A stretch of 64,000 nt of DNA from Promethearchaeota archaeon (GCA_048938105.1 JBHLMN010000018.1:72960-136959); one strand, 5' to 3'; shown: positions 44 to 25,722, counted from the stretch's first letter. The notes: generated by a model from the letters alone, not told the origin. Program-made: numbers and translations.

Positions 44-871
44 CTATTTAATAATGCTTCCCAATGGTGATATTAGGAGGGAGGAAACTATTTTCTCAAA
101 TGTAACTCTACGGTTTATGTAATAAGGAAACATAAAGACAGAGAGAGGAAAGCCAGCTTTTATTTCTTGGAAAGTAAGCGGTGCAGGATAAATCTGCCAT
201 GGATGAAGAAACATTACTGAAGCTAATCCTTGGCTCTCTCTATGTCGAATGAATCGAAATATTTGATCTCCTATTAATCCAATAAAGAAACCTGAGCCAT
301 AAGGAATTTCAAAATTCTTCAAAAACACATTAATTAGTCCCCGCGGCATATCTACCATCTTTCGCCTTTCCTTAATCTTATTAATCATTCTATAGGAAGA
401 TACTGGGATTTCAAGAATAGGAAATTGGTTCTTCAAAATATTCTTGGTACTATAAATTGAGGAATCGTACTTAAACCCCGCATCTACTAATAGTTGACAT
501 TCTTCAATTGTCAGCTGCATTTCTGGAGCTCTAAACCCTTTAGGTTTAAATGTTGAAAGAAATTCTTCCGCAAACTTTAGTTCCAAATCCAGTGCATTTT
601 TCCCCATTAATTTAAGATGATTACAGGTGTGAAATCCAATTTCGTGTTTTAATTGCTTAATTTGTTTAATAAGCTCTGGATACCATTGATAAATCTCACT
701 TACTATAAAGAAAGTCAGATTAGTTTTTTTCTTACTCAATATCTCAAGAATTTGGGATGTAGCTTGAACAATGAATCCATTATCTAGACTTTTTCTTTTT
801 TCAGAAGTTAACTCTTGTAATGCGCTTCTATGAACCCATGATTCTAAATCGATCGTGAGATGATGATACAT
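44..871 (-). CDS. Polysaccharide deacetylase family protein (CE4/NodB-like, DUF3473-type)
   Basis: TIDLESW, TFFIV, HEIGFHTCNH metal-binding motif, GFRAPE, YDSS, EIPVS, FLHPWQ. Confidence 0.85.
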   Translation of the reverse strand: MYHHLTIDLESWVHRSALQELTSEKRKSLDNGFIVQATSQILEILSKKKTNLTFFIVSEIYQWYPELIKQIKQLKHEIGFHTCNHLKLMGKNALDLELKFAEEFLSTFKPKGFRAPEMQLTIEECQLLVDAGFKYDSSIYSTKNILKNQFPILEIPVSSYRMINKIKERRKMVDMPRGLINVFLKNFEIPYGSGFFIGLIGDQIFRFIRHRESQGLASVMFLHPWQIYPAPLTFQEIKAGFPLSVFMFPYYINRRVTFEKIVSSLLISPLGSIIK

Positions 872-982
872 AGACTGTAAAAACCTACCTTTTTAATTAA
901 AAGCCTGAAGGCTTTATATTATACGCCTGTGTGGAATATACTCTTGTTAATCCCTAGTTTTATCAGCCTTATCTTCAAGTTG

Positions 983-2467
983 TCATTGTTTAGTAATTTT
1001 TGGAATGAATGACTTTCCATCGAAATATTTTGGTATAGGAGTATTAAGAAGATTTAGTATTGAAGGAGCAATATCAAGTAAATTTGCATTTAACCGCTTA
1101 GGTTTAATTGATGAACCAAAAACTCCAAAAATACCAGTCATATTGTGACTAGCGGGACGATTGACAGCAGCTTGTTTTGGTTTTCGAAATAATCCTCTTA
1201 AATGCTCTTCTCCAAACAATTCAAAACCTTTATTTGGAATAAGTACAAATTCTGGGAGAGTATCAACATGTTTTCCGGAATAGACAACGTTTTTTCGGAA
1301 AACATCTTGCATTAGCCTGTAATTTAAGTTGGAGTCCTTGATTTTTCTTAATTTTTCAAGGAGTTCAGTAATAAAATGTTCTTTTTCATCACTTGATTCC
1401 CATGAGTAATATGGGTTAATATCTATCATATGATTTGATCCAGGTACATAAAAAGCTCTAGTTTTTTCCCAGTCAATATTAAATATCGATCTTTGTGGTG
1501 AAATTTGAGATAAAACATGAGAAGTATATTTTGAGTGTTTGATTCTCCATACAATTCCGCGTAAACCTAATTTAAGCATAATTTTTTGGATATTCTCTGG
1601 CTTTAGACCTATCCTTCCAACAAATTTCCCCATAGGTCTTATACTAAGGTATTTCAAGTAGTTTTGCTGTTCTAGCCAGTTGTTAAGGTGAAATTGCCAC
1701 TTTACCTCTTCAAAACCATGATCAGAAGCAATCATTAGAGTTATGTTATCTGTCAGATAATTTATTATTAGTCCTAAAATTTGGTCTATCTTTTGGTAAA
1801 ATTTTAATAAAATATCTCTCTCATTCCAAAAGAAATGCTGAACTACATCCAAGAACCTGAAAACAACAATAAAAAGATCCCATTCTTTTGTTTTTAAGTA
1901 GTCTGTGACAATTTGCCATCGTATTTTTTGTGCAAGATTAATCCTTTTGAGTAAAGAGTTCTTGTCTCCATCTAATCTAAACAACTCCTCATTAAAATCA
2001 ATTTTATAATTAGGATGTTCTTTAAGAAAGGAGGATCGAATACTAGGAGGAAACATGAAGTTTGATGAGATCGAAGGAGTTCCGAGACCAGAAATCATTA
2101 TCCCATTAATTGGATCTGGAGGATAAGTTATTGGAACATTAATTACAATAGTTTTATAACCCCTCCGTGATAATATTTCCCATATAGCTTTGGCTTTTCG
2201 ATCGTGGGCTGTGACTGGTTTCATTTGGTCTGTTCCAGGTTGTATTTTTACAAATCCATAGATTCCGTGTTTTCCAGGATTAACACCACAAAACATACTT
2301 GTCCATGCAACAGGTGATAGAGGAGGAATGGATGATTGAAGATTTCCTAAAATACCTTCTTTTTGAAATAATAACAGGTTTGGTAGTTTCTTCTCTTTAA
2401 AAAACTCTTCGATAAGTTTTGGAGTGGCACCATCAATACCTATAAAGATTACACGATACCTGTTCAT
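983..2467 (-). CDS. Alkaline-phosphatase-superfamily protein (type I phosphodiesterase/nucleotide pyrophosphatase-like, possible sulfatase or phosphotransferase)
   Basis: IGIDGAT, PPLSPVAWTSMFCGVNPGKHGI, DVVQHFFW, IASDHGF, SH..G, LLDIAPSIL. Confidence 0.85.
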   Translation of the reverse strand: MNRYRVIFIGIDGATPKLIEEFFKEKKLPNLLLFQKEGILGNLQSSIPPLSPVAWTSMFCGVNPGKHGIYGFVKIQPGTDQMKPVTAHDRKAKAIWEILSRRGYKTIVINVPITYPPDPINGIMISGLGTPSISSNFMFPPSIRSSFLKEHPNYKIDFNEELFRLDGDKNSLLKRINLAQKIRWQIVTDYLKTKEWDLFIVVFRFLDVVQHFFWNERDILLKFYQKIDQILGLIINYLTDNITLMIASDHGFEEVKWQFHLNNWLEQQNYLKYLSIRPMGKFVGRIGLKPENIQKIMLKLGLRGIVWRIKHSKYTSHVLSQISPQRSIFNIDWEKTRAFYVPGSNHMIDINPYYSWESSDEKEHFITELLEKLRKIKDSNLNYRLMQDVFRKNVVYSGKHVDTLPEFVLIPNKGFELFGEEHLRGLFRKPKQAAVNRPASHNMTGIFGVFGSSIKPKRLNANLLDIAPSILNLLNTPIPKYFDGKSFIPKITKQ

Positions 2468-2480
2468 TATCTTTGGTTTC

Positions 2481-3770
2481 CTATTGGACTGTACGATTGT
2501 TTGACTGGTCTCTTTTTACAAGAATCATACTAATTATTCCAAATATCATAAAACATACTGAGAAAAACATTATCAAGAATATTGTTGAGAGAGAGTCATG
2601 AAACAGGATTATTCCAATTACTTCGAAAATTATACCGAGAAATAAGGGAATGTTATAAGAATAATTATTTAATGCGACATTATAATTAATTAAGATAGCT
2701 ACTACCCCATAAAGAAGAAAAACGAGAGTAAAAAAAGGTAAATAAGCAATAGCAGGACGATATAATTCTCCAAAAATCGTCAATACAAAAAATTCACCCA
2801 TGAAGAATATACTTAAATATACAACCATGGATAAACATAACGATATCAATAGACTTGTTTTAAGTACTTTTAAAACATCTTGTCGAGATTCATGTGCTTT
2901 TACAGCTTTTGGAATCATCACAATAATAAAAGCAGTAGCGCTATAAAGAACGATTCTACCAATTGTTGAGAGAATAGCATAATATCCTGATTCGGTTGTT
3001 GAAAAAAATATACGAATCAATAATATATCTAAATTAAAAAATAAAATAAAGCCAATATCTGTAATTAAAACTGGAAATATTACTTGAAAATCAATGTTCA
3101 CTGGGAAATCTTCTCTATTAGTGTAGAAATAAGGAGACACAAATACTAATAGTAATATTGGAGTACAAAATCCAGCAATAATTATCCCCCATATCGCTCC
3201 AACTACTCCAAATCCATATAGAACGAGTAATAAGCCAATAACCAATCTTATACCTGGAAAAAGAAGGAGACTGAAACCTAATCTATTAGTATTTTCCATT
3301 CCCTGAAAAATACCCTCGATTACTGGATTTATTACCGTAGAAAAGACATAAGATACAGTAATAAATATCAATATTTCAGTTTCAAATTTCAGAGTTGTTG
3401 CAATGAAGGGGGAAAAGATTAGTAGCAATAGACCGATTCCGATGAAGAATGGAAAGATAAATCTGAGAATATTAATAAATAGACTTTTAATTGCTCCAAG
3501 GGTTTTGTTTAATGCTATTAAGGAGGATTTTTTCGCAGCAACAATCGTTATGCTTTTGTAAGGAATTGTTAAGATAGCTAAAATCGATAACAGGGCCGAA
3601 AGGAGACCAAACTCACTTGGTGATAATAATCTACCCATAACTATTTGATACAAGAAAGTTAAGAAATTTTTGCTAAAAATAAAGAATAATATCAAGAATC
3701 CTGTAATTGCAAAACTATTAATGACATTATTTCGCCATATATTCTTCAATTTGTCATTACGCATTCTCAA
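2481..3770 (-). CDS. Oligosaccharide/polysaccharide flippase (Wzx/RfbX, MOP superfamily)
   Basis: About 12 TM segments; N-terminal 'GRLLSPSEFG' and mid 'LDILLIRIFFSTTESGYY' Wzx motifs. Confidence 0.85.
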   Translation of the reverse strand: MRMRNDKLKNIWRNNVINSFAITGFLILFFIFSKNFLTFLYQIVMGRLLSPSEFGLLSALLSILAILTIPYKSITIVAAKKSSLIALNKTLGAIKSLFINILRFIFPFFIGIGLLLLIFSPFIATTLKFETEILIFITVSYVFSTVINPVIEGIFQGMENTNRLGFSLLLFPGIRLVIGLLLVLYGFGVVGAIWGIIIAGFCTPILLLVFVSPYFYTNREDFPVNIDFQVIFPVLITDIGFILFFNLDILLIRIFFSTTESGYYAILSTIGRIVLYSATAFIIVMIPKAVKAHESRQDVLKVLKTSLLISLCLSMVVYLSIFFMGEFFVLTIFGELYRPAIAYLPFFTLVFLLYGVVAILINYNVALNNYSYNIPLFLGIIFEVIGIILFHDSLSTIFLIMFFSVCFMIFGIISMILVKRDQSNNRTVQ

Positions 3771-3821
3771 TAAAATCCTATAATTATCTTTTTAGTTACT
3801 TTAACCCTTTGTTATTCATTT

Positions 3822-4391
3822 TTAGTGAAATCCTGTATTATTTTTCTCTACCCGCTTTATTCTCCTAGCTGGTACACCCGCTACTATGTTATAAGCTGGG
3901 ACATCTTTTGTTACAACGGAGCCAGATCCCACGATGCAATATTCCCCTATGATTACTCCAGGCATAATGATTGAATTTGTACCAATATAAGTTCCTTTTT
4001 TTATCAAAATTGCTCCTAAAAAAGCATTCAAATCAGTACGTTCACTTGTAAAGTGAGTGATAAATGTAACATTGGGTGCTATTGAAACTTCGTCCTCAAG
4101 ATAAATAAGATATGGGAACAAAACATCGAATTTCACTTCTTCAGAAATTGAAACACGTTTTCCTATGTGTACCCCCCTTTTTCGTTGAACAAATACCCGC
4201 ATTCCTAGCCATGGTATGAGGTATCGGCATAGCATTTCAAAATAGAAGTAAAATATCAACCGATTAATTGTTTTGAAGATTCCAATTAATCCCTTTCGAT
4301 AACCATAGAAATCTCTATAATATCTTAAACTTGCTAGCAGACCCTTTTTCCCTGTAGAAGGTTCGATAGGGATTTTCTTAAATGGGCTCAT
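3822..4391 (-). CDS. Hexapeptide-repeat (LbH) sugar O/N-acyltransferase
   Basis: IGTNSIIMPGVIIGEYCIVGSGSVVTKDVP...VAGVPARRI signature. Confidence 0.9.
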   Translation of the reverse strand: MSPFKKIPIEPSTGKKGLLASLRYYRDFYGYRKGLIGIFKTINRLIFYFYFEMLCRYLIPWLGMRVFVQRKRGVHIGKRVSISEEVKFDVLFPYLIYLEDEVSIAPNVTFITHFTSERTDLNAFLGAILIKKGTYIGTNSIIMPGVIIGEYCIVGSGSVVTKDVPAYNIVAGVPARRIKRVEKNNTGFH

Positions 4392-4447
4392 GAAAACTAA
4401 GCTTCCTAAGATTCTATCTAATCAATTAAGTTTCTAAAGTAGAGGTT

Positions 4448-4810
4448 CTAATGAATTCCTATTTGGTGATTTTCTCTTTTTCTCTGCATCAGAAAATCAA
4501 TGAAATCGGTAATAGTACCAATAATGATGAAAAAGAAAGCAATTAGCACAATATCACCAATAGTCTTTATTAATGACCTATTTAATCCAACTAGAGAAGC
4601 TACAAGAATAAGAACAATACCAAATAGCTTAAGAATCGTAGAACGATCCGTTGTTGTAAGATTTAGGGGAATAAAAATAATTAGAATCCAGATAAAAATT
4701 GTTTCCTTAAATATTATAAACAACAGTGATATACCCGCGAGATAAATTGAGAAAAAAATGATACTCTCTGTCAAAACTTCCTGAAAGCTTTTATAAATTC
4801 TGATCAACAT
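4448..4810 (-). CDS. Small integral membrane protein
   Basis: Several hydrophobic segments; starts 3 bp after the stop of the upstream GT-C gene. Confidence 0.65.
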   Translation of the reverse strand: MLIRIYKSFQEVLTESIIFFSIYLAGISLLFIIFKETIFIWILIIFIPLNLTTTDRSTILKLFGIVLILVASLVGLNRSLIKTIGDIVLIAFFFIIIGTITDFIDFLMQRKRENHQIGIH

Positions 4811-4813
4811 CTT

Positions 4814-7800
4814 TCAAAACCCCTTTAAGTTTTTTTTTATATTTTTCAATTCTTTTCTCAAATCTATTCGATCTAAGACTATTAAACCCCAGAAAATCGC
4901 TATACTTATCACAGAGAGGTTTATGCTTGCATTGAACCATGTTTGAGGCAGATATTTAATTGTAATTGAAAAATCTCCTGTTTTATTTATCCAAAAACTG
5001 TTGATTATTGAAAAACAGGGGATTGAAGTAATTAGAGGCTGATCATCAATCTGAGCAACCCAAAGAGGATCATAACATTCAGAAAGAACTAAGATAAATG
5101 GGTCAATTGCATTTTGAATAGAAACTTCATATTTTGTAGGGGAAACTTTCTCATAAGTAATTTTTGGTTGTAATTTATTAGATTCAAAGAATCTATTGAA
5201 TGGATCTGTATCTGAAAGACCTTTGATGAGATACATACAATCAAGGTAGCTATCTAAACTTGTGTTTAAACGAATAGTATATTCACCCTGTTTACAAACG
5301 ATTGGTACCGAGGAATACACAATAGATTCATCAGATGATTTTAACGGGCTTAATTCTAGCACTGTGTTATTGATATTAACAGAAACAGCTGGTTGATTAT
5401 TACCAAGAAATCTGCAAAACAATCGATAATTTCCCTCTTCTAGAACATCAATAGTTGTTTCTCCTTCTATCTGAGGTTCGAGATATATCACTCCCTTTCC
5501 TGAGGCTAAACCACCATATCGTGTAATGAATCCATCGGGGTTTTCAAATAGAAGTTCTATTTGATCAAACCAAGTGGTTCCATTTTCGGGAAAATTACTA
5601 TTTCTCCATCCAGCGTTTAAAACAACTGATACTTTTGTGAAATCAGAATCTAGTCTCAAATTTATTGAATAATCCTGCCAATCCCGATAACCATCAATCC
5701 CACTTGGGTTTTGTCTAATTTGCTGCCAAGTCTCTGCAGTTTCATTATAACCATATAAAACAGCATGAGACTGAATCGAGTTTTCTGTTTTCATTTTGAC
5801 TCTGAAAATACATTTAGAATTCGGTTCAATATCGATTTCATCAGAAATTATCCAAGACCATTGAGGAGTAGTATTATGTGTACTTACTCGTAGGCTGGAA
5901 GCTCCATGCTGACTATTTTCCATGTCTAAAGAAATTGAAAATTCCTCATTGACAAAGTTCCACCCTTGAGTTGAATTTTCAAAACTTGGATTAGGAATCT
6001 TGTTTTCTATATTCCGAATCGGAGTTTTTATCCCTTCTTCTGCTTCTAAAATGTACATTATGTCTTTCTCTGAAATAATATCGGAAACTGTTTTTTTTAA
6101 TGAGCTCATTTTTGCTGAAGGAATTACTTTTATAGCTGATATGCCATTGAACCCTTTAGTATTTGAGAAACCAATTTTATGAGCTCCTTTTAGAAAGGTA
6201 TAATTTCCAATATGTTTCCACCGAAAAACTGGCTTATTATAAATAGTATCTATATCGATAACATCAGTCCCTTCATCTAAACTCACACGAATCTGACCTC
6301 CCTCTGGACTCTCGAATACCCGAATAAAAATCTCATGTATTCCAGATTCAGGAATGGTAAAAGGAATATCTATAGAGGGAACTCTCTCCCATTCAGCTAA
6401 AGAATATAAGTATAAATTGTCAAGATACCATCTTGATGCAAGATAAGGATTATGTCTAGATAAAATCTGAAAACGGATGAATTTTGTTTTTTCTGGTAGT
6501 TTTAAGGTTTCATCGATTTGTGTAAAATCAAAATTTGGTTTTATAGTATCAAAAATAATTTCTGTAGCCAATAAATCGTATTCTTCATCAAAATATAGTC
6601 CTCTTACTCTTATTTGAGGACAATGCTCCCCCTTTATCGAAAAACCTGCATGTAAATGTAATGTATCTGGGATTTCGATATACGCAGATCTAAAATCAGC
6701 CCATCTATCAGTATCCCCAAAAGGAATGCTTCCTGTTAAACACGAAACTACTCCTGTAGATGTTTCAACTTCTGTAATTGTTAAGTTTGTATCTTGTGAT
6801 GAATACCAAAAATTTGTCTCTGAAGAGTTTTTAAATTCTATTTGAATAAGAGGTTCTGCAGGAAGATCGTATGGTTCAGTCAAAGCTTTTGTACTATAAG
6901 TGAAGATAAGTCCTTTATTATAATCAAATTCATAAGTATCAATATCTCTATCTTGAAGATAAGGATGCCAACGACCATAAAGTGGATCATGGTACATACC
7001 TGCAGACCAGGTGGAAGAGGGATCATATTCTGTAACGTGATCAAAAGGAAAAATCCAATAACCATCTCCAAAATATGCATAAAGATCATTATTTGTGAAG
7101 TTTGCTGGGAAAATAATGAAATCAGCTTTTTGAAGATCCTCAACCTCCCTGATATTATAATCTAGAAAAGAGATAGCAGTCTGGTAAGGATCAAACGCTG
7201 AAATCGCTACCAATGAACCCAGAATTTCTTGGCCACCAAAGGTTAAACCATACTCTTCAGGAGAGTAACATCTCGATCCTAATCGCAATCCTTCGTTTTC
7301 ATAAATGGTTATCATCCCCTGGGTTTTCACTGATGACATATTTCTCTGAGATTGCATATTAATGAGCATTTTTTCGACTTCCCCCGCATGAGGATCTTGT
7401 AGATCATTATGGAAAATTAAAAATCTCACATCAAGCATATCAAGGAATTTATAGAGATTTTCTGTTCTATTATTCAATATCAAAGACGTTGATCTATCAT
7501 AATGGTCTAATATGTATGTATAAAACTTGTTTAAGTTAACATATGCTGAAAAAGTAGGATTATAAGAAGAAATTTCATCGAAATTGAGTAAGTCCCAAGG
7601 TCCTGTAATTTGCCAAGTACTTTTCCGACCCATGTACTTCGGTGTCCATAAACAGCGAGAAGATGGATAATTTTTAGATAACCATTCATTTATCTCAAAA
7701 TATTCGTCTGGAACCTCTACTGGTAATAATTTTTGCCCAATATCGCCGACTAATAGAGGCCAAGCAGGAATGATTACACTGAGAATTATTACCGCGGTTA

Positions 7801-9157
7801 CTGTGAAAGTAACACCTTGGTTTAACCATCCTTTTTTGATTTTATTTTTAACTGCTGGAAATGAACTCAAATAATTTATAATTACAGGTACTAACTCCAT
7901 ATAAGTAAATCCGATTAAAAAAGACCCGAAAAGTAAAACTATTGTCATCAAACGGAAGGGATTACGAAAAACCCATCCAAGTGGAAACTTTAAGATAACC
8001 CATTCCATAAATTCTTTAATTATAGGAAAACCATCTTCTCCTAGGGCAGTAACAATAATCATCCAAAAAAGGATAGATAATGTAAAGAAAAGAACATCAT
8101 GATTTTTTCGATTTAGTATTATTGGAATAAGCCAAATACAGAAAATTAAAACTGAAAAAATTTGGAAGAATGTGAGAATTATATCGTTTTGTAATATCGG
8201 GGGAAGATCTAGGAATCCTATCCCTGACCATTCGATATTTAGCTTCAAGAGATTGGTGAGAATAGCATTCCTTGAGTAAAGGGCAAGGGCAACACTAGTA
8301 AGTATATAGGGCGGACCAAGTAGCACTCCAGTATTAATGGTGTACAGTAAATACGGAATTATCCAAAAAAGAGAAAACAACCAATAAAGGATAACATTGA
8401 AAGCAAATAAAGCTGTTCTTCTCATGATATTTCTTTTTCTTAAAGATCCTTGTTCCAAAAAGAGATCCGAGATAATTATGAAAAGGGTATAACTTAAATT
8501 CACCAGAAAAGCATAAATGATCCAGCGTTGCTCTCCAGCAATGAATAACCACAAAAAACTAGAAATCCCAATCATTTTTAGATTTTGATCATCTTGTCCG
8601 TGTTTAAAACTAACAAAAACCAAAGGGATGAGAGCTAAATTGACTTTCATTCTCGTATGACGCGCCATTGAAACCCATGCTGGATTAAAGGTGAAGAACA
8701 AACCTGCTAAGAACGATCCTATTATTAGATGGATTTTATTTCCATTAAAATTTCGTCGTAAAACAAGATATGCTGATAAAAACATTGAATAAGATCCTAA
8801 GGTGTGAGAAAATACCCAAAGTAACTCGAAAAGATCCATCGGTCTGATTTGGAATACTTGAGCAATAAATAAGATTAGTAACATTAAAGGATACATAGTA
8901 ATTCTATCAAAATTATTAGAACTTAGGTTGCTATTCCAAAGGGGATAAGTATCACTAATTAGTTCCTCAAGCCGCAAAGGAACCATTAAATCGTTATACA
9001 CTTCATATTCATTGAACCCTATTGCTGAAAGAGGGATACGAAAGATAAAGCAACTTATTAGAAGGTAAATGATAATAACACAAATGTGAACTGAAAACAC
9101 AGGTAAGAATGCCTTTAGAGATGATGAATTTTCTCCTGTGGTTTCATTTTGACTCAT
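4814..9157 (-). CDS. Large GT-C-fold membrane glycosyltransferase-like protein (AftD/YfhO-like) with extracellular carbohydrate-binding modules
   Basis: N-terminal multi-TM region (AGLFFTFNP, VFRNPFR), 'LDMLDVRFLIFHND', CBM4/9-like 'IPNPSFEN...WFDQIEL', CBM6-like segments, C-terminal 'LSECYDPLW...INSFWI...YLPQ' + TM. Confidence 0.7.
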   Translation of the reverse strand: MSQNETTGENSSSLKAFLPVFSVHICVIIIYLLISCFIFRIPLSAIGFNEYEVYNDLMVPLRLEELISDTYPLWNSNLSSNNFDRITMYPLMLLILFIAQVFQIRPMDLFELLWVFSHTLGSYSMFLSAYLVLRRNFNGNKIHLIIGSFLAGLFFTFNPAWVSMARHTRMKVNLALIPLVFVSFKHGQDDQNLKMIGISSFLWLFIAGEQRWIIYAFLVNLSYTLFIIISDLFLEQGSLRKRNIMRRTALFAFNVILYWLFSLFWIIPYLLYTINTGVLLGPPYILTSVALALYSRNAILTNLLKLNIEWSGIGFLDLPPILQNDIILTFFQIFSVLIFCIWLIPIILNRKNHDVLFFTLSILFWMIIVTALGEDGFPIIKEFMEWVILKFPLGWVFRNPFRLMTIVLLFGSFLIGFTYMELVPVIINYLSSFPAVKNKIKKGWLNQGVTFTVTAVIILSVIIPAWPLLVGDIGQKLLPVEVPDEYFEINEWLSKNYPSSRCLWTPKYMGRKSTWQITGPWDLLNFDEISSYNPTFSAYVNLNKFYTYILDHYDRSTSLILNNRTENLYKFLDMLDVRFLIFHNDLQDPHAGEVEKMLINMQSQRNMSSVKTQGMITIYENEGLRLGSRCYSPEEYGLTFGGQEILGSLVAISAFDPYQTAISFLDYNIREVEDLQKADFIIFPANFTNNDLYAYFGDGYWIFPFDHVTEYDPSSTWSAGMYHDPLYGRWHPYLQDRDIDTYEFDYNKGLIFTYSTKALTEPYDLPAEPLIQIEFKNSSETNFWYSSQDTNLTITEVETSTGVVSCLTGSIPFGDTDRWADFRSAYIEIPDTLHLHAGFSIKGEHCPQIRVRGLYFDEEYDLLATEIIFDTIKPNFDFTQIDETLKLPEKTKFIRFQILSRHNPYLASRWYLDNLYLYSLAEWERVPSIDIPFTIPESGIHEIFIRVFESPEGGQIRVSLDEGTDVIDIDTIYNKPVFRWKHIGNYTFLKGAHKIGFSNTKGFNGISAIKVIPSAKMSSLKKTVSDIISEKDIMYILEAEEGIKTPIRNIENKIPNPSFENSTQGWNFVNEEFSISLDMENSQHGASSLRVSTHNTTPQWSWIISDEIDIEPNSKCIFRVKMKTENSIQSHAVLYGYNETAETWQQIRQNPSGIDGYRDWQDYSINLRLDSDFTKVSVVLNAGWRNSNFPENGTTWFDQIELLFENPDGFITRYGGLASGKGVIYLEPQIEGETTIDVLEEGNYRLFCRFLGNNQPAVSVNINNTVLELSPLKSSDESIVYSSVPIVCKQGEYTIRLNTSLDSYLDCMYLIKGLSDTDPFNRFFESNKLQPKITYEKVSPTKYEVSIQNAIDPFILVLSECYDPLWVAQIDDQPLITSIPCFSIINSFWINKTGDFSITIKYLPQTWFNASINLSVISIAIFWGLIVLDRIDLRKELKNIKKNLKGF

Positions 9158-9200
9158 TATTGAACCTCAATTCTTCTTTGATATCTTAGATTATAACAGA

Positions 9201-10928
9201 TTACTGATCTATCTGATTTCTTAACCTTTTTCTAAGGATTCTCCAATTAAGCACAACACATACCCCCCAGAGAAACCCCAAAACGGAAAAGGAGGCCTGG
9301 GTCGCCGTGGAGGAGGAAGGCTCAGGGGATGTCGAGGAAGGCTCAGGGTCGACAAAAACGAGCACCGTATCGTGGGTTGAGTGGTTTCCTTCATCCATGA
9401 GAACCAAGGTAAGATTATGGGTGCCTGTAGATAACCAATCTAAGGTAATAGTGAGATCAGTCGGACGCCAATACTTATCGAACGTGTGGGCACCCGATTC
9501 AATGGGTTTACCATCAAGATAGAGCGTGTATGACCCAGGCATGGTGTACCTGGTGCGGAAATTATACCAGGTCTGCCAAATGAGGTTCACAGGGTCGTTA
9601 GAGCGGACATGTAGATCAGGGGGCGCGCTGAGGATGGGGGTCAGGCGAAAGCGCTCCATCCGATAGACCCCGTACACAAACTCTTCTGAGTTGTTGAAAT
9701 CCATTTCCCAAACAATATCTCCCTCATTATTTACCTCAACTAATCTTACACCAATTATACCTGGACGTCTTATTACACCAAACGTTCCAAGGCGATTACC
9801 GTTGGGGAGGCGATCAGCATCCCCCCAATAAGGACTATAGTATTCAGCAGGAGCGCTCCAGCTCCAGGTCTCGTTGGCGGTCATGGTGGTCTCGTTAATG
9901 GTGAATTCCAAGATCTGGGATCGCCTATGTTCAGGGTTGGTCTGGTTATGCAGGTCATTGTCGAACAGGATGAACGTGTGGTCACCGACCTTCTCTACGG
10001 CGTGCGCATGGTAAAAGAGGTTGGTTCGCTCCCTCCCATAGCGATCAAAGAGGGTAAAGTTCCCGTACTCCCCTAGCCCCCATAGCACCTTCCCCGTTTT
10101 GTGATCGATCTTGTAGAATGTGTTCACATTGCGCATATTACAGTACAAAACGTCTTCCTCAGGATCCGAAAAAAGCGAATTGGTATGAGTGATATCACGT
10201 AGGCCTCTATTTAGATCCTTGAATGGGCACCACTGGGTATGGGAAATAAAAGAGTCTGTGTCTAAGGACCATACCAATTGACTCGACATATCATACTCCT
10301 CGATTCTGTCATAAACGTACTTAACTTCATTAATTTCCTTAATATATACTTGTAATGTGAGAAATGTATTATTAGCATGATTATATTCATACTCGTGATG
10401 TCCATAAAAATTAAATATCATGGTTTGATCATTATAAACATTCCACAAAGCTAAACCATCAGATTCCCCCATAATGACAGTTGTGGAATTAATAAACTCC
10501 ACATTCTGACTCTGCGATGCTCCGATTTCACTATCGTTAAAAGTTTTCTCTATGAATATCTCTCCATTCATATCAGTGATAAAAAGAACACGCTGCCTGA
10601 AATTGGGATCAGCTGGTTTACGTAATCTAAGAACAAATAAATTATAACCGTCAAAGACATTTCCAAAGAAGCTAACATTCAGAACCTCCTCTAGATAACT
10701 GTTATTCCACAATTGAAGGATTTTGTATAATAATTTACTTTCTGGATCTTCTTGTGGATCATAAAAGTTTTTATTTTCCATCTGAGGTTGATTAATGACT
10801 AATGTGACCATTAGATCACCTGTGTAAGTAAATAATGAGTTAGAAACAGAACTTGAACCTGAAATCAACAACAGAAAAAAAAATAAAATCATGTTTTTAG
10901 TCCTAAACCAAACCATAAATTTTCCCAA
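9201..10928 (-). CDS. Secreted, C-terminally anchored aryl-sulfate sulfotransferase (ASST-like beta-propeller)
   Basis: Signal peptide; GHHE, DITHTNSL, FYHAHAV, LFDND, WGDADRLPNGN, YRMER motifs; Ig-like domain, Ser/Thr linker, TM + basic tail. Confidence 0.85.
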   Translation of the reverse strand: MGKFMVWFRTKNMILFFFLLLISGSSSVSNSLFTYTGDLMVTLVINQPQMENKNFYDPQEDPESKLLYKILQLWNNSYLEEVLNVSFFGNVFDGYNLFVLRLRKPADPNFRQRVLFITDMNGEIFIEKTFNDSEIGASQSQNVEFINSTTVIMGESDGLALWNVYNDQTMIFNFYGHHEYEYNHANNTFLTLQVYIKEINEVKYVYDRIEEYDMSSQLVWSLDTDSFISHTQWCPFKDLNRGLRDITHTNSLFSDPEEDVLYCNMRNVNTFYKIDHKTGKVLWGLGEYGNFTLFDRYGRERTNLFYHAHAVEKVGDHTFILFDNDLHNQTNPEHRRSQILEFTINETTMTANETWSWSAPAEYYSPYWGDADRLPNGNRLGTFGVIRRPGIIGVRLVEVNNEGDIVWEMDFNNSEEFVYGVYRMERFRLTPILSAPPDLHVRSNDPVNLIWQTWYNFRTRYTMPGSYTLYLDGKPIESGAHTFDKYWRPTDLTITLDWLSTGTHNLTLVLMDEGNHSTHDTVLVFVDPEPSSTSPEPSSSTATQASFSVLGFLWGVCVVLNWRILRKRLRNQIDQ

Positions 10929-11281
10929 GTTACAATCATTATTTACAGCAATTATTTTAATTTCTTATGAGATATCTAGTCAATAGCCATTCTTGTTTTT
11001 ATAAAAATACATCGAATCAATTATATTTTAGCTAATTTCTAACATTATAGCAATTTTAGAGTTAATATTGCTTAAGAAAAGGCTTTTTGTTTGATTCTGA
11101 GGGTGAAATTCTGGTAATTAAAACACTCCAAATACTTTTGGAAATGTTTATTTCAGATATTGATAAATCAGCTCTTAATATGTTACTTAAATAAATGAAA
11201 TACGCAATTAATATTCTGAAAAATTAAAAAAACACTATCGATTTTTAGTAAAATCAATAATCAGTCTGGGGCTAATCGAAG

Positions 11282-11500
11282 ATGACGTCTGCTAAAACAG
11301 TTACAATTCCAGGGGATATAATAGAAAACATTCGAAAGCGGATTAAAAAGAGTGCTTTCTCAACAGAAGAAGACTTTATAATATTTGTTTTAAGAATCCT
11401 TATGGAAGATAAGAATAAAAATTCAACTAATTCCGAGCCATTTTCCGAGGAGGAGGAAGAACGTGTCATGGAACGATTACGTGGGTTAGGTTATCTATAG
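11282..11500 (+). CDS. Small ribbon-helix-helix (CopG-like) protein with C-terminal EEEERVMERLRGLGYL motif
   Basis: N-terminal 'TVTIPGDIIENIRKRI...FSTEEDFIIFVLR' RHH pattern; acidic LxxLGY tail. Confidence 0.8.
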   Translation: MTSAKTVTIPGDIIENIRKRIKKSAFSTEEDFIIFVLRILMEDKNKNSTNSEPFSEEEEERVMERLRGLGYL

Positions 11501-11533
11501 ATTATTGATAACAAGGATATAAAATTGGTAGTG

Positions 11534-11890
11534 ATGTCAGAAAATAGATGACTATCTAAATCTACAATTATTCCTTTTTCAATTAGAATTTTCATTCCTA
11601 AAAAATAGGCTTTAACATACCTCTTAGTATTGTCAATTCTTCCTCTTTCTCTCTCTAATAAGTATGCAGACTAATCACAAACAAATAAATTTATAGTTGA
11701 ACTAAGTGATCAACAGAAAATTACCCCTGATGGTTTATCTTATCATATAGTCAACCTGATAAAAAACACGACAAATCCGATTCAAGCTGACATAATCTCA
11801 TCATACAACGCGTTTGAAGGATATAATCTGTTTGTTCTTAACAAAAAAAATAGAAATAATCCTTCTTTAGGGGATAGTTCTCATGATTAA
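11534..11890 (+). pseudogene. Decayed 5' fragment of a third ASST-like gene
   Basis: One frame from ATG 11534 with three internal stops encodes a signal-like segment and 'LSYHIVNLIKN...NAFEGYNLFVL', matching 'LLYKILQLWNN...NVFDGYNLFVL' of 9201..10928. Confidence 0.75.
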
Positions 11891-12030
11891 TTGGAGAAGG
11901 GATAAGAAATTTTAAAATGATATTTTTTTGACGAAACTGTTTCAATATAGCGTTTGATTAATTAATACACTTACACAATTATATTAATAGTGTTCAATTC
12001 ATTAACCATAAAATTATACAAAAAATATAT

Positions 12031-13179
12031 GTGATAAATGACATGATTAAACTTAAGAAACAAAAATCAAGCAAATACAAAGAGTTCGACTTTCCAGCTC
12101 CAATGTACTTTATCGTGAAGTTTTTTCATGAATTCTCATTTCTCGCAAATGTTGTGCACACAGTTGAATCATTCCATCTGAAGAAAAGAATTGATAAGAT
12201 TAATATCGACAAACCAATATATATAATAGGACTAGCGAGAGCTGGAACGACAATTACTCTTGAAATGCTCAACAAGCATCCCGATGTGGCTGCGCATAGA
12301 TATTTACACATGGTTTTACCTTATACACCACATTGGACTCAAAAGGTCGCAGATTATACCCCTATAATGACATCTCCAGTAGAACGACTCCATAAAGATA
12401 GAATAGCAGTCACTCGAGATAGTCCCGAGGCAGTTGAGGAAATATTCTGGCAAAAATTTTTTAAGGATACTCATGATGAAGCTCGTTCCAACATCCTTGA
12501 TAATCTGGTTCAGAACCTACCTTTCGAATTTTTTTATCAAGATCATATAAAAAAATTACTTATTAATCGAAAAGCAACTCGCTATTTAGCCAAAAACAAT
12601 TATAACGTAGCTAGAATGGAATATCTACATAAATTATTTCCTGACTTAAAATTTATCATTATTATTCGGAATCCTTTTGATCATATCGCTTCTCTAGCCA
12701 AACAAGACAGAATTTTAAAAGAACTGGAATATGAAGATCCCCGATTACTGGATTGGACTAAGATAATCGGACATAGAGAATTCGGGACAGCGAAAGTTTG
12801 TATTAATTTTGATAATCCCAAGATAATTGAAAGAATTAGGGGTTTATGGAATCAAAAAGAGACATACATGGAAGGATGGGCTGTTTACTGGGCAGAAACT
12901 TATTCATATATTCATAAAAAATTGCAAACAAATCCAAATCTAGCTAAAGCAAGTCTAATAGTTCGTTATGAAGATCTTTGCGAAAAATCTGAGATAACGA
13001 TTGATAGAATCATCGACCATATAGAAGTGGATCCGAAAAAATTTCTCAAGATAAAAAAACTATATTCCAAACGTTTAAGAAAGCCTACTTATTATATAGC
13101 TAAATTTACTAATAAAGAACAAGAGAAAATAATTCAAATAACAGGGAAAATTGCCAAAAAGTTTGGATATGTTTTCTAA
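12031..13179 (+). CDS. PAPS-dependent sulfotransferase (Sulfotransfer_3-like), cytoplasmic
   Basis: 5'-PSB loop IIGLARAGTT, 3'-PB IIRNPFDHIASL, VRYEDL; no signal peptide. Confidence 0.9.
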   Translation: MINDMIKLKKQKSSKYKEFDFPAPMYFIVKFFHEFSFLANVVHTVESFHLKKRIDKINIDKPIYIIGLARAGTTITLEMLNKHPDVAAHRYLHMVLPYTPHWTQKVADYTPIMTSPVERLHKDRIAVTRDSPEAVEEIFWQKFFKDTHDEARSNILDNLVQNLPFEFFYQDHIKKLLINRKATRYLAKNNYNVARMEYLHKLFPDLKFIIIIRNPFDHIASLAKQDRILKELEYEDPRLLDWTKIIGHREFGTAKVCINFDNPKIIERIRGLWNQKETYMEGWAVYWAETYSYIHKKLQTNPNLAKASLIVRYEDLCEKSEITIDRIIDHIEVDPKKFLKIKKLYSKRLRKPTYYIAKFTNKEQEKIIQITGKIAKKFGYVF

Positions 13180-13229
13180 TCATATCCTAAAAGTTAAATT
13201 TATATTATTACTTCAAAGATGACGCTCTT

Positions 13230-15356
13230 ATGCGGAAATCAGTGAAAATCCTCCTAATTGCCAGTGTAATCATTGTTATCATTAGTATTCCAATAATCTT
13301 TATTATTTCTAACGTTTTGAGAATGGGGCAAAAACCTCCACCATTTACTTTAGATAATGCTCCGGAACAAATCATCATTTCCCGAAATGATATAAGAAAG
13401 AAATTAGAAAATAATACCTTTTCTTTGGAGGAAGACAGCCAGATATTCCTTGATTTTAGCCAATGGATGGCAAATAATTGTCCTGATATACTAAACTTAG
13501 TCAAGAATTGGAAACAAACAGTCCTATTTGAAATTAAAAACTCTACCTATGATATGTGGTGGATAATTGGAAATAATTCAGCTATTGTGGAAGTAGGTAC
13601 AAATCCACCTCAAAATTACGGGCTGCTTATTAAATTAGACTTCAAAACCTTCACTGAAATACTCAGACAAGAGGAAACACCATTATCAGCTTTTCTGAAA
13701 GGGAATTTGATATATGAAGGTTCTTTTGATGAAGCGCTCAAAGTTGCTGAAATTACTAATATTGTAAGTGCAACTGTAATGGACACCTATACCCCAGCTA
13801 TTCTAGGTGGGCCCACTTTTAAAATAACAGTAGATAAGAGTGAGCTATATGAAGAGGAGGGATTAACCCTCTTTCCATGCATTAGTGTCACCATTAATCC
13901 TGATCACATTGGAAAACTGCATAAATCTCTGATAGGACAGGGTTCTGTCATAATAGTGGACCAAAGAGGGAAGATAGTTGCAAAACTTGAAGATTCTTCA
14001 CATTCAGTACATGAATTCATCAATTCAACTACTGTTATGATGGGTGGACAAGAGCCTGGATATATGCAATTATGGAACTTCAAAGAGAATATTACTGAAA
14101 CACTAGAAGTACCATGTGGACACCATGATCTTGATTATAATCCAGTCTCGGACACTTTTATGGTGTTAGAGTACATCTATTTAAAGGAGAAATGGGGTAA
14201 AGACAATATCACTGTTACTTATGACCTTCTATCGGAATATAATAGGGCGGGAGAGCTAGTGTGGCAATGGGATCCCAGTATTTTTTTCCCTTTCAACGCT
14301 ACACGTTATACAAGCTTGGGTTTAAATGAAACGTTCCGCGGTGGAGCAGATTGGATGCATTCTAATAGCTTTGTCTGGGATAAGACACTTAAGGTCATTT
14401 ACTTAAATGTTCGCAATCTTGACACGATCTTGAAGATTAATTATACTACTAAAGAGGTGATTTGGGATGCTGGTCGTGGAGGGGACTTCACTTTACTTAA
14501 CAAAGTAGGAGAAGAAGTAGATACTCTCTTCTGTCATCCTCATGGTTTTGAACGGATAAGCTCTGATAGGTACATCTTATTTGATAATGACTTGTTTAAT
14601 CAATCCAATCCATCTACTATGTCAATAGAAAACTCTACTGGACACTCAAGGTTCTTAGAATTTGAAATAGACGAAGAAAACCATATTATGAGAGAGATTT
14701 GGTCATGGGTACCTTCAAATCAATCTTACTATTTCCCCGAATCAGGAGGGGATGCGGACCGTTTACCAAATGGAAATACTATAGGGATTTTTGGAGATAA
14801 GGCTTTAATTCTCAATTTACGCGATCCAGTGATTCTTACAGAAGTAACCAAAAATGGAACAATTGCTTGGGAATTACAAATACCAGGAATGAATAACACT
14901 TTCTTCTGGGTGCACCGATTAGAGAGATTTTATGCAAAACCACTTATTACCATTCATGATCAATCTATTGATTTAAGTGATGGATTTCTATGGATTAATC
15001 TTTCGACATGGAATACTTTTAAACAAGATGCAACCTTTCAAGGTATAATAAAAATAGTTGCGGATGGACAAGAGGTTTCTCAGGAATCATTTGAATTTCT
15101 GCCTCATTGGCAACCAACAACTTTCGAAATAACAGTCAATAATCTCCCATCCAATGCAAAAGCTGTTGAAATCATTATCGAAAACAATGATGGGATCAGA
15201 AATTCTGTTATTATTTATGAAAAATCACAAAACGTCCTTCTTTCATATGGCCCAGTTCTATTCCTTATAGGAAGTGTATTGGTTGCTATTCCTGTTGTTA
15301 TTGCATATGTGAAAATTAAAAGAAAGCGCGATATCCTAGAACAGAATACTGAATGA
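13230..15356 (+). CDS. SCP2 lipid-binding domain + arylsulfotransferase (ASST) fusion, membrane anchored
   Basis: N-terminal TM; SCP2 signature 'LIKLDFKTFTEILRQEETPLSAFLKGNLIYEGSFDEALK'; ASST motifs GHHD, DWMHSNS, FCHPHG, LFDND, GDADRLPNGN, HRLER; C-terminal TM + KIKRKR. Confidence 0.8.
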   Translation: MRKSVKILLIASVIIVIISIPIIFIISNVLRMGQKPPPFTLDNAPEQIIISRNDIRKKLENNTFSLEEDSQIFLDFSQWMANNCPDILNLVKNWKQTVLFEIKNSTYDMWWIIGNNSAIVEVGTNPPQNYGLLIKLDFKTFTEILRQEETPLSAFLKGNLIYEGSFDEALKVAEITNIVSATVMDTYTPAILGGPTFKITVDKSELYEEEGLTLFPCISVTINPDHIGKLHKSLIGQGSVIIVDQRGKIVAKLEDSSHSVHEFINSTTVMMGGQEPGYMQLWNFKENITETLEVPCGHHDLDYNPVSDTFMVLEYIYLKEKWGKDNITVTYDLLSEYNRAGELVWQWDPSIFFPFNATRYTSLGLNETFRGGADWMHSNSFVWDKTLKVIYLNVRNLDTILKINYTTKEVIWDAGRGGDFTLLNKVGEEVDTLFCHPHGFERISSDRYILFDNDLFNQSNPSTMSIENSTGHSRFLEFEIDEENHIMREIWSWVPSNQSYYFPESGGDADRLPNGNTIGIFGDKALILNLRDPVILTEVTKNGTIAWELQIPGMNNTFFWVHRLERFYAKPLITIHDQSIDLSDGFLWINLSTWNTFKQDATFQGIIKIVADGQEVSQESFEFLPHWQPTTFEITVNNLPSNAKAVEIIIENNDGIRNSVIIYEKSQNVLLSYGPVLFLIGSVLVAIPVVIAYVKIKRKRDILEQNTE

Positions 15357-15394: not shown

Positions 15395-17074
15395 TCAATT
15401 TGTTCGCTTTCGAAATAACAAGATTAACGAAAATCCACTTAAAAGTGAAATAAGTGGAAAATTACTTGCATTTGGATTACTGGTGCCATCAGAACCGGTT
15501 TCAGATGTCTGTGCGGATGATTCTGTTGATGAGGGTCTTGAACGGAGTTCTATTGTTACTGTGTCTTTTGCACGATTTCCAAAGATATCATCAAGTACTA
15601 AAACAATTTCAACGGTTTCATTCTTATCAGTCAATCCCAATTTGTAAGAGACCGATGATTCTTCCCATGAGCTTTGTTCCACCATTATATTCTCGACAGA
15701 AACAGAATAGTTCCATGGATTAAGATCGTATACTTCCCAGGATATTTGAACAGTCTTCTGATCCGACCATACCCAAAAATCGTCTGGACCAGTTATTTGA
15801 GGGAGATCAGTCTCATAATCAGGTTGGTTGTAATAGATGGCTTCAATCGCGTCTAATTCAACGTTTTTTTCTTCAGAAATACATTCGATCCAAATATACC
15901 TAGCAGATGTAAGCCCAACTGCTGATAGATCGAAGCTTTGATTACCACTCCCAGTTCCTAGGATAACAAAGGGACTAGTGAAATTGTTACCAACTCGAAC
16001 AAGGTAATCACCATCTCCAGCGATAACTGTAAAGTCTGATCCAGTTCCATTTATAATTTCTTGATTTAATCCCATATCCAAGACAAGATACCCATTTCCA
16101 TAATCTATGTAAATTACAGCAAGTTTATCATCGGGGGAACCAAGTGCATTCTCACCATAAAGATACCAAGTAGAAAGTCCTTCTAGAAACCAATTTGCAT
16201 AAGCATCAAGATAACCTGATGGAGGCTTTGAGCGAAGTTCTATTGTTACTGTGTCTTTTGCACGGTTTCCAAAGATATCATCAAGTATTAAAGTAATTTT
16301 AAGAGAATTATTTCTATTCATTAAATCCAAATTGTATGTAATTAGAGATTCTTCCCATGGGAGCTGTTCTACTGTTATATTCTCGACAGAAATAGAATAG
16401 TTCCATGGATTAAGATCGTATACTTCCCAGGATATTTGAACAGTCTTCTGATCCGACCACACCCAAAAATCGTCTGGACCAGTTATTTGAGGGAGATCAG
16501 TCTCATAGTCAGGTTGGTTGTAATAAATGGCTTCAATCGCATCAAGTTCAACAGTTTCTTCAGAAATACATTCGATCCAAACATACCTTGCAGAGATAAG
16601 CCCAACTGTTGAGAGATCGAAGCTTTGATTACCACTCCCAGTTCCTAGGATAACAAAGGGACTAGTGAAATTGTTACCAACTCGAACAAGGTAATCACCA
16701 TCTCCAGCGATAATTGTAAAGTCTGATCCAGTTCCATTTATGATTTCTTGCCTAAAATCCATATCTAAGACAAGATACCCATTACCATAATCTTGGTAAA
16801 TCAAAGCATAATTATTATCAGGGGGACCAAGTGCATTCTCACCATAAAGATACCAGGTGGAAAGTCCTTCAATAATGTAATTTGCATAAGCATCAAGATA
16901 ATTTTTCACTGATTGAACGCAAATAATGTCTTTAAATGAACTATACTCAATATCGGGTTGCTCTGCGACTTGTATTTTCGTCAATGAATCAATAGAATTT
17001 AACTGAATTAAGCCAACACTAGTGAAAAAAATCAAAAAGAATCCTATTGTTATATGCATAGATTTGATTTGCAT
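15395..17074 (-). CDS. Anchored cell-surface protein with two near-identical ~230-aa units
   Basis: Signal peptide; duplicated 'YLDAYAN...ALG[PS]PD...NGTGSDFT...DDIFGNRAKDTVTIELRS'; Ser/Thr linker, TM, RKR tail. Confidence 0.8.
   Translation of the reverse strand: MQIKSMHITIGFFLIFFTSVGLIQLNSIDSLTKIQVAEQPDIEYSSFKDIICVQSVKNYLDAYANYIIEGLSTWYLYGENALGPPDNNYALIYQDYGNGYLVLDMDFRQEIINGTGSDFTIIAGDGDYLVRVGNNFTSPFVILGTGSGNQSFDLSTVGLISARYVWIECISEETVELDAIEAIYYNQPDYETDLPQITGPDDFWVWSDQKTVQISWEVYDLNPWNYSISVENITVEQLPWEESLITYNLDLMNRNNSLKITLILDDIFGNRAKDTVTIELRSKPPSGYLDAYANWFLEGLSTWYLYGENALGSPDDKLAVIYIDYGNGYLVLDMGLNQEIINGTGSDFTVIAGDGDYLVRVGNNFTSPFVILGTGSGNQSFDLSAVGLTSARYIWIECISEEKNVELDAIEAIYYNQPDYETDLPQITGPDDFWVWSDQKTVQISWEVYDLNPWNYSVSVENIMVEQSSWEESSVSYKLGLTDKNETVEIVLVLDDIFGNRAKDTVTIELRSRPSSTESSAQTSETGSDGTSNPNASNFPLISLLSGFSLILLFRKRTN
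15545..16900. repeat. Intragenic tandem duplication, two copies of ~690 bp
   Basis: Long identical DNA runs (e.g. ttccatggattaagatcgtatacttcccaggatatttgaacagtcttctgatccgacca) recur ~690 bp apart. Confidence 0.9.
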
Positions 17075-25600: not shown

Positions 25601-25722
25601 AAACCTATCACTACAATAAATCGAAATTGGACAATAATTGCCCAAACTTTCTTTATATAGCATAAAAAATTTGATGAGGGTTCTAAGGAATCTGTTACTT
25701 CTTCTTCTGACGCCATTGTCAT
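22636..25722 (-). CDS. Large GT-C (GT39/GT83, ArnT/PMT-like) membrane glycosyltransferase
   Basis: WDEGWF acidic motif, FFDKPP, YSRTAYID, LTK, YYYIP; many TMs. Start placed at ATG 25722 (MTMASEE) to avoid overlap with the divergent gene. Confidence 0.8.
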   Translation of the reverse strand: MTMASEEEVTDSLEPSSNFLCYIKKVWAIIVQFRFIVVIGLLAFWVKVAFIHSTDMWDEGWFTAIASRMADGLSDPFLPMYYTGNNNELLFFDKPPVAFWGGALLMIIFGRTTFAAKGIVILGGAGLALIIYFLYSHQLENKSAAIVAGLLVALAHFLTFYSRTAYIDSFVVFMAALVMLLGIRAIDAIFIENNLLKGYLLLFLTIVVNILNILTKAWQGILTYPAIVVYLLFRYLERHINVDDLRAIWQEISERFTISRKDMEPYLLIQSEYVENGIPFPFIVAIVVSVSSFFGAFLTDQLVVSSIILALGAAVGFYIVFFRSCVKQKSQLQSEGLITGVVAGYIAGFIGALFIRIFYDRLEESFIIFADALGSEDIFSIDLLIQLIPIEFISEPLSEFFSNEMLALLLLEMVASIFGLILTFGTVFFLSGILLDLFNRKSKFLRVIYEGIDLLPLVILGGGLGVWFVGLLIMGRDGVDASLITLFGAIITVILTPLVIAYPKIKNIFIEHFKLNAHLRSPKELSTFSNHLLFLVIAILLIIFSFWPFVAWVQYLDTNIANGTFPWVVRTPGELYSDPKRPNPVTYTFLFFEYYIGWRFTHATKSGDLPKSVGSAINDYALVVMLPFFIIGIVAFFFSSKRNPALGSALLAWLITIPFVFFPAQFQLNYYYIPLAIPYLAIAAKGFEFIYSNDQWRMTVVDNVERLLAGFIFYITFAFEYLITPVSDLVNIPFAFLAGTELSVLIDQVIALDLGFLLFISAIYLIPFTFITFRYLKTFPGIIAVGFAYDFFIESWFKYNGLQILYNTIFHDLLETILSMDLSWVLDVVEHGAPIATIVGLILLIFGLYWLKPKVKPQAFIFLGLTLSAMLINVSVLIHVNQIFDLRFQESAIYIKNHGGDYNYSTWVIPDAGSQFAMRYYLGYEIEDSNSNNRYYNIPFSHNSSLQMELYYQQHKNIRFWVIINNSEHHDVPPYAIAYPEAYKWFTTNEHLVCVDDVVGLTSWYTMHLFVNRTWITNQTYDWTKLYG

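Follow-up and report, generated by a model that had tools for sequence, protein, structure and literature searches.

Sulfotransferases and enzymes of surface-glycan synthesis lie side by side between positions 44 and 15,356 of a 64,000-nucleotide stretch of DNA (the window, G000:C28:72960-136959) from a Promethearchaeota archaeon, whose genome of 5.85 Mb has a GC content of 35% and is 99% complete. We consider it probable that this locus is made up of two juxtaposed units and does not encode one conserved pathway. The first unit is read as a species-specific tailoring island for a surface glycan. The second (12031-15356) is a pair formed by a sulfotransferase (ST) of the type that uses 3'-phosphoadenosine 5'-phosphosulfate (PAPS) and an arylsulfate sulfotransferase (ASST) carrying an SCP2 domain; it is conserved across the phylum and perhaps includes a neighboring surface protein of 559 residues. 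An earlier note, made from the sequence alone, had seen here a single surface-glycan sulfation locus. Part of this view stands, as a deacetylase, an acetyltransferase, a flippase and a glycosyltransferase of the GT-C type are indeed found beside sulfotransferases. The single conserved pathway does not, since the glycan block as a whole has no equivalent in the 59 relatives searched (20 congeneric genomes and others from the same order or class). Among known organisms, Asgard archaea stand closest to eukaryotes, and very little is known of their cell surface. If their glycans are sulfated, above all via a relay between a PAPS enzyme and an ASST, this would represent a novel way of making a sulfated glycocalyx; the claim is limited in that the island of glycan genes is variable and specific to this species, conservation being confined to the sulfation pair with its two enzymes.

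The genes that the earlier note had called were recovered without exception, all nine being intact open reading frames (ORFs), and Pfam and NCBIfam scans gave family support for eight of them, a 120-residue membrane protein being the exception. On the minus strand, the order is ASST1, a GT-C protein with a carbohydrate-binding module (CBM), a protein with three transmembrane (TM) segments, a hexapeptide transferase, a Wzx flippase, an alkaline-phosphatase (AlkP) superfamily enzyme of the nucleotide pyrophosphatase/phosphodiesterase (NPP) type and a CE4 deacetylase, with intergenic gaps of 3-111 bp. ST and ASST2 are on the plus strand, divergent from this run and separated from it by 1.1 kb. 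Hydropathy analysis finds no TM segment in ST, CE4, the NPP-type enzyme or the hexapeptide acetyltransferase, and indicates an extracellular position for the two ASSTs, which have hydrophobic segments at both the N- and the C-terminus.

The sulfation pair has the features expected of active enzymes. ST (12031..13179, plus strand), predicted to be cytoplasmic, matches PF13469 (5e-22; 79.7 bits for a cut-off of 27). Its G-L-A-R-A-G-T-T and I-R-N-P stretches align with the PAPS-binding loops of TPST (5'-PSB and 3'-PB) and are invariant or nearly invariant among orthologs. ASST2 (13230..15356, plus strand) starts 50 bp downstream and consists of an N-terminal TM segment, SCP2, the ASST propeller (PF05935, 5.5e-24) and a C-terminal TM segment; the SCP2 domain is detected in all nine ASST2 orthologs considered, at best with 4e-7. 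For PF05935, ASST2 scores 85.3 bits and ASST1 89.9 bits, the cut-off being 24.2. In ASST1 (9201..10928, minus strand; 575 residues, PF05935 2e-25), which is predicted to be surface-anchored and PAPS-independent, H248, N250 and R266 align with H356, N358 and R374 of Escherichia coli ASST (3ELQ), for which the roles of the active-site residues have been described (PMC13426309). H309, invariant in 14 sequences, aligns with a histidine of the solved sulfotransferase 9KF4 and would be, as inferred from these alignments, the equivalent of the catalytic H436 of E. coli. Motifs and alignments thus support the view that the sulfotransferases next to the glycan genes are competent-looking.

Linkage between ST and the SCP2-ASST is strict among relatives. 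ST orthologs occur in 10 of the 59 genomes, and in each of the 10 the SCP2-ASST adjoins ST. Searching with the SCP2 part alone returned the same 10 genomes and one more, a congener, where a 4.4-kb contig (L028, G018:C305:1-4427) shows the ASST about 0.9 kb from, and convergent with, the NPP and cysC genes of the PAPS operon; this contig ends within the ASST gene, and ST may lie just beyond. A second SCP2-ASST copy in G045 has no ST within about 7 kb. A wider scan of species-representative genomes returned 80 ST loci, spread over Heimdall-, Hod-, Thor-, Hermod-, Hel- and Loki-type Asgard archaea and some bacteria, and the SCP2-ASST is beside ST in 18 of them. Bacterial members of the family, 42-49% identical (L087-L109), come from Eremiobacterota/Vulcanimicrobiota ("Cybelea"), Desulfobacterales and Gemmatimonadales and make a separate clade, so that the ST family spans both archaea and bacteria.

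Analysis of neighbors and a quick maximum-likelihood tree, with SH-aLRT as the only support measure, distinguish two archaeal ST clades. Clade A (26 loci, support 92) includes the window ST, and its neighbors are the SCP2-ASST (17 loci) and/or cysC-sat (9 loci). In seven Thorarchaeota loci of this clade, ST, cysC and sat are only 16-60 bp apart, and ST is therefore firmly tied to PAPS. The earlier note had made its reading depend on a linkage of sulfotransferases with flippase and deacetylase conserved in relatives. Such a linkage was not found for the clade of the window ST, as no clade A locus other than the window has a CE4, hexapeptide, Wzx or GT-C homolog as a neighbor. Clade B (29 loci, support 100) has 12 loci with CE4 and/or a hexapeptide transferase, the similarity of the latter being generic to the fold and not a sign of orthology. 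Its CE4s are 32-36% identical to that of the window, and four of them lie 340-395 bp from ST. Two GT2s, a UDP-galactopyranose mutase, radical-SAM enzymes, a LuxE-like enzyme and a hydrolase are conserved in these clusters. Therefore, a logic that combines sulfotransferase, deacetylase and acetyltransferase does exist in Asgard archaea, in the sister clade. The clade B cluster is seen in Loki-, Hermod- and Hod-type genomes (L062-L090; for example L077:4804-15912), with a WbmS-like CE4, a hexapeptide transferase of 371 residues, B12-radical-SAM and radical-SAM enzymes, a LuxE-like acyl-protein synthetase and an alpha/beta hydrolase.

The first unit looks like an insertion next to this pair. Indeed, the interval between the starts of ST and HSP90 is 0.16-0.45 kb in four congeners and is filled here with 20.6 kb of glycan genes. 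The island comprises positions 44-10928 of the window and 8.3 kb further to the left, as far as HSP90. The earlier note had the operon running on past the left edge of the window. CE4 is in fact the last gene of the minus-strand run, on which the plus-strand gene of a surface protein with Ig domains converges, ending at base 6 of the window. Beyond it, the minus strand resumes with a second GT-C (1061 residues, 25% identical to the first), a 95-residue TM protein and a GT4, then a WbuX-like amidotransferase, a GT2 and finally HSP90. The island therefore extends to the left and the operon does not. Of the genes that the earlier note proposed to look for there, glycosyltransferases are present (GT4, GT2 and the second GT-C), and sat and cysC are on another contig, C52. 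No flanking repeats, recombination sites or shared direct 11-mer were found at the borders of the island, and the only tandem duplication is inside the gene of the 559-residue protein.

Just left of HSP90, two genes encode small GTPases of the Gtr1/RagA type (L001:4969-8348, that is C28:57968-61347), one being a multidomain form of 729 residues. These GTPases and the closest loci, which come from metagenome-assembled genomes of Heimdallarchaeota or Hodarchaeota, agree with the probable Asgard origin proposed in the earlier note.

The central protein of the island (4814..9157, minus strand; 1447 residues) has nine predicted N-terminal TM segments and a C-terminal one, and CBM_4_9 spans its residues 1052-1183. 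Its residues 1-519 recruit 179 representative clusters of comparable large proteins, and their AlphaFold2 (AF2) model (pLDDT 90) has AftD as its best Foldseek match (6w98; E 3.5e-4, TM-score 0.52, probability 1.00), followed with the same probability by AglB, STT3, PglB, ArnT and AftA. D56, which at least 90% of the 40 aligned family members share, lies in the first loop on the extracytoplasmic side, after TM1 (residues 13-38) and before the following TM segment. PF11847 (GT-C_AftD) is weakly matched by 5 of the 40 members (best 5e-6), the window protein itself having no match to it, and a profile search of PDB sequences failed to retrieve AftD. On the strength of the model, the protein has a GT-C fold and can be called AftD-like, so that the "GT-C/CBM" call is borne out at the level of the fold. 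The family is present in 13 of 399 Asgard genomes, and the first GT-C has no ortholog among the 59 relatives; its nearest metagenomic relatives are 29-34% identical. In seven genomic contexts that were read, a GT4 similar to that of the island occurs in four and a similar GT2 in two; none of the seven has homologs of ASST, ST, CE4, NPP, Wzx or the hexapeptide enzyme near the GT-C.

The gene of the 120-residue protein (4448..4810, minus strand; three TM segments by hydropathy) starts 3 bp downstream of the GT-C gene, and its product is a candidate small flippase or partner subunit. It has no Pfam or NCBIfam match, and no similarity to the 95-residue protein found at the equivalent place after the second GT-C. 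A duplicated module of a GT-C and a small protein was considered and dropped: the two GT-Cs are paralogs (25%), but the small proteins are dissimilar and match no flippase family. Another large protein of the GT-C type, with 1092 residues and a PMT_2 domain, is encoded 7 kb to the right of the locus (22636-25914, minus strand), near large surface proteins with PKD and NosD/beta-helix domains and an ABC-2 transporter.

The remaining island enzymes belong to well-known families. CE4 (44..871, minus strand), a NodB-fold deacetylase with a DUF3473-type tail and a predicted cytoplasmic location, matches PF01522 (1.5e-10; 41.5 bits for a cut-off of 23.1), with DUF3473 below threshold (2e-4) and TIGR03006 as the nearest NCBIfam model (1e-26, under its cut-off). 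Its HTxxH and R-x-P motifs align with those of solved CE4 enzymes. The N-terminus reads T-I-D-L-E-S in place of the TFDDG Asp-Asp motif 1, which makes this first motif atypical and the deacetylase activity putative. The sole CE4 ortholog among the relatives (G015, 64%) lies between GT4 and the second GT-C. The Wzx/MOP-family flippase (2481..3770, minus strand; at least 10 hydrophobic segments) reaches 34.3 bits for PF13440, with a cut-off of 23. The left-handed beta-helix (hexapeptide) acyltransferase (3822..4391, minus strand; PF00132, 2.8e-12) is O-acetyltransferase-like, its best NCBIfam matches, all under their cut-offs, being heptaprenylglyceryl-phosphate, galactoside and WcaF O-acetyltransferases.

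The soluble AlkP-superfamily enzyme (983..2467, minus strand; PF01663, 1e-39) gave nothing in a PDB sequence search. Its AF2 model (pLDDT 93) has ENPP6, ENPP1, Xac NPP and PhnA as top folds, the first three at E values of about 1e-16 to 1e-17. Of the metal-ligand columns of the family alignment, those of D12, D249, H250 and H441 do not vary and those of D207 and H211 hardly do, and position 51 is a serine in the consensus. A sulfatase-like nature of this enzyme is ruled out by the NPP/phosphodiesterase fold. A GPI-anchor-like reading of GT4, deacetylase, GT-C and PF01663 enzyme was also dropped, as the NPP has neither a TM domain nor an ortholog and none of the tests spoke for it. Indeed, no ortholog was found in the 59 relatives (best 35%) or in 399 Asgard genomes (best 36%), and the nearest metagenomic relative is 42% identical.

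PAPS synthesis genes, on which the earlier note had made its reading depend, do occur in the genome. They form one operon of contig C52, with sat, an NPP gene and cysC preceded by two small ORFs, and the presence of sat and cysC supports the conclusion that this organism should be able to make PAPS. The NPP of this operon is a full-length paralog of the window enzyme (26%), with a threonine at position 51 by pairwise alignment. Between the two divergent sets of window genes, a 72-residue ORF (11282..11500, plus strand), without Pfam match and looking ribbon-helix-helix-like by eye only, is 43% and 32% identical by tblastn to the two small ORFs that immediately precede sat (C52:221491-221291 and C52:221029-220838). 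The surroundings of the C52 operon (C52:217739-226313; L005 6739-15313) form a second sulfation-related surface-polymer locus, with a TagF-like glycerophosphotransferase, an NTP-transferase/aminotransferase fusion, a second PF13469 sulfotransferase, a UDP-glucose dehydrogenase and a CDP-alcohol phosphatidyltransferase.

Two groups of neighboring or related genes touch the ASSTs. ASST1 is one of seven ASST paralogs of the genome, has no one-to-one ortholog among the relatives (best 56%), and belongs to a type that can number as many as 10 genes in the genome of a relative, frequently arranged in tandem. Arrays of 5-7 ASST1-type genes are seen in Heimdall-class genomes at G050:C9:177946-185846 and G059:C164:9597-22092. 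The anchored surface protein of 559 residues (15395..17074, minus strand), a frequent companion of the sulfation pair with homologs flanking ST/ASST2 in several relatives, contains two repeats of 229 residues, the product of a recent tandem duplication of 687 nt whose copies are 86-92% identical in DNA sequence, and matches no Pfam family. In three Heimdall-class loci (L010:10536-13694, L013:10110-13283 and L014:7665-10856), ASST1-like proteins carry this domain as a C-terminal fusion, which suggests, at the sequence level, its functional tie to ASSTs.

Folds, motifs, predicted topologies and the statistics of linkage are what the sequences show; what the two units may do, with which substrates and in which order of steps, we infer. 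Inside the cell, lipid-linked sugars would be built by GT4 and GT2, CE4 would take off an acetyl group, the hexapeptide enzyme would add an O-acyl group and the NPP-type enzyme would handle a phosphodiester or a nucleotide. Outward transport of the lipid-linked sugars would fall to the Wzx-type flippase, to the small TM proteins or to both. Outside the cell, the two AftD-like GT-Cs, with the CBM gripping the acceptor, would add sugars, following the logic of bacterial three-component GT-C systems. For the second unit, the most likely scheme would be that ST sulfates a hydrophobic carrier, which the outward-facing ASST then uses as donor outside. A complete trans-membrane relay, in which PAPS sulfate is put onto a lipid-like carrier that crosses the membrane, and the SCP2-ASST, perhaps with ASST1, passes the sulfate on to the glycan of the island, would be a bold extension of this scheme and strikes us as rather unlikely. 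If true, it would allow extracellular glycan sulfation without export of PAPS and would offer a natural function for the ASST family, which is poorly understood.

Several observations weigh against two units that work separately in this way. ASST1 is only 43 bp upstream of the GT-C gene, in the same run. The region also holds paralogs of two genes of the PAPS cassette, the NPP and the 72-residue ORF, and some functional coupling between island and sulfation is therefore plausible in this genome. This paralogy, which is not conserved in other genomes, is the best hint offered by the sequences that the island is tied to sulfate metabolism here. Moreover, the surveys of neighbors used homologs of the window's own proteins, so that unrelated glycan genes near other STs would have been missed. 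As for the proposed mechanism, the small TM proteins match no flippase family, and no carrier-making enzyme was found. A carrier made by a type III polyketide synthase (PKS) was considered and abandoned, PF00195 not being found in this 99%-complete genome.

The most ambitious alternative to two juxtaposed units is an integrated pathway, to which we give a low probability: CE4 would de-N-acetylate a GlcNAc-type residue, ST would N- or O-sulfate it from PAPS, the acetyltransferase would cap other positions, Wzx would flip the product and the ASSTs would finish it outside, yielding a sulfated, partly deacetylated glycocalyx or N-glycan. All parts are within 15 kb, PAPS can be made, and STs of the sister clade are found in conserved Asgard glycan clusters close to CE4 and near hexapeptide transferases. 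In rhizobia, Nod-factor tailoring (NodB, NodL, NodH and NodPQ) makes use of the same chemistry. However, the window ST belongs to the other clade, in which such neighbors are confined to the window, it abuts HSP90 in four congeners, it lies on the strand opposite to the glycan run across the 1.1-kb gap, and the glycan block is unique to this genome. Two more precise proposals of the earlier note also find no support. For N-deacetylation followed by N-sulfation, as performed by NDST, nothing that was tested speaks in favor, there being neither evidence for N-sulfation nor a conserved CE4-ST linkage in the clade of the window ST, and no sequence feature here sets N- apart from O-sulfation. For an N-glycan as the product, AglB is on another contig, and nothing ties the island to N-glycosylation specifically.

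Two further explanations, both of which we hold to be quite improbable, concern single enzymes. The NPP-type enzyme itself might sulfate the glycan or handle a sulfate donor, as do VNG1056C/VNG1057C, leaving ST to serve only the pair with ASST2. In Halobacterium salinarum, these AlkP-superfamily proteins were shown by genetics and heterologous expression to sulfate the N-glycan (PMC11980604), and the solubility of the window enzyme, its conserved metal-ligand columns and its paralogy with the NPP of the sat operon fit with such a role. Its fold, however, is that of ENPP6, ENPP1 and PhnA and not the sulfatase-like one of the Halobacterium enzymes, the cassette homolog of Thermococcus is reported as a pyrophosphatase (PMC4463584 and PMC8268124), and the lack of an Asgard ortholog deprives the idea of any linkage evidence. 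The other explanation sees in the ASSTs an expanded set of enzymes at the surface that do not modify glycans but swap sulfate between aryl or alkyl sulfates of the environment or scavenge it from them, with ASST1 beside the GT-C by chance. The paralog number, the tandem arrays and the lack of a one-to-one ortholog of ASST1 would be understandable on these grounds, and the natural acceptors of most ASSTs are indeed unknown (PMC13426309). Against it, Cpz4 sulfates a sugar hydroxyl (PMC13426309), and the way in which the SCP2-ASST strictly adjoins a PAPS-type ST, and also cysC, speaks for a donor made by the cell itself. Two juxtaposed units, with a conserved sulfation pair next to a species-specific glycan island, remain the reading that we prefer.

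Known systems resemble the locus to different degrees. With the NDST of eukaryotic heparan sulfate and with the Nod factor, as generally known, the locus shares the availability of a deacetylase, an acetyltransferase and a PAPS sulfotransferase. The likeness is one of logic only, there being here, in contrast to NDST, no fusion and no conserved linkage in the clade of the window ST. The sulfate-activation cassette of Thermococcales (Thermococcus onnurineus TON_1704-1707; Pyrococcus yayanosii PYCH_17520-17560), whose NPP-type protein is described as a pyrophosphatase (PMC4463584 and PMC8268124), is matched by the C52 operon with its small ORFs, sat, NPP and cysC. That operon differs in having no DHH-type pAp phosphatase between sat and cysC, and the window differs in having neither sat nor cysC. 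As in H. salinarum, an archaeal surface-glycan cluster encodes sulfation and has an AlkP-superfamily protein among its glycan genes. The Halobacterium enzymes, in contrast, are sulfatase-like and encoded in the aglB cluster, whereas here the AlkP protein is NPP-like, aglB is elsewhere, and a canonical ST and an ASST are present.

For the island, the nearest models are AftD, the mycobacterial GT-C arabinofuranosyltransferase with CBMs (PDB 6W98), and the bacterial three-component GT-C systems (GtrA/B/C; Citrobacter ORF12/14/15), in which a GT-C works together with a flippase and a synthase of lipid-phosphate sugars (PMC11127046). The window GT-C is only 12% identical to AftD and does not match PF11847, its small TM partners match neither the GtrA nor the SMR family, and the system is archaeal and would be of the dolichol type. 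It shares with these systems the N-terminal multi-TM GT-C fold, the aspartate of loop 1, a large CBM ectodomain, a C-terminal TM segment and the neighborhood of a GT2 and of small or MOP-type membrane proteins, and the predicted reaction would likewise be extracytoplasmic sugar addition from a lipid-phosphate donor.

For the sulfation pair, the closest precedent is Cpz8/Cpz4, which carry out a two-step sulfation of caprazamycin in Streptomyces (Tang et al., 2013, as summarized in PMC4257720). The archaeal pair comes without a type III PKS and has its ASST anchored in the membrane, outside the cell, with an SCP2 lipid-binding domain. In both cases, the gene of a PAPS sulfotransferase stands beside that of a PAPS-independent ASST with a conserved active site, and by analogy a sulfated intermediate carrier may connect the two enzymes.

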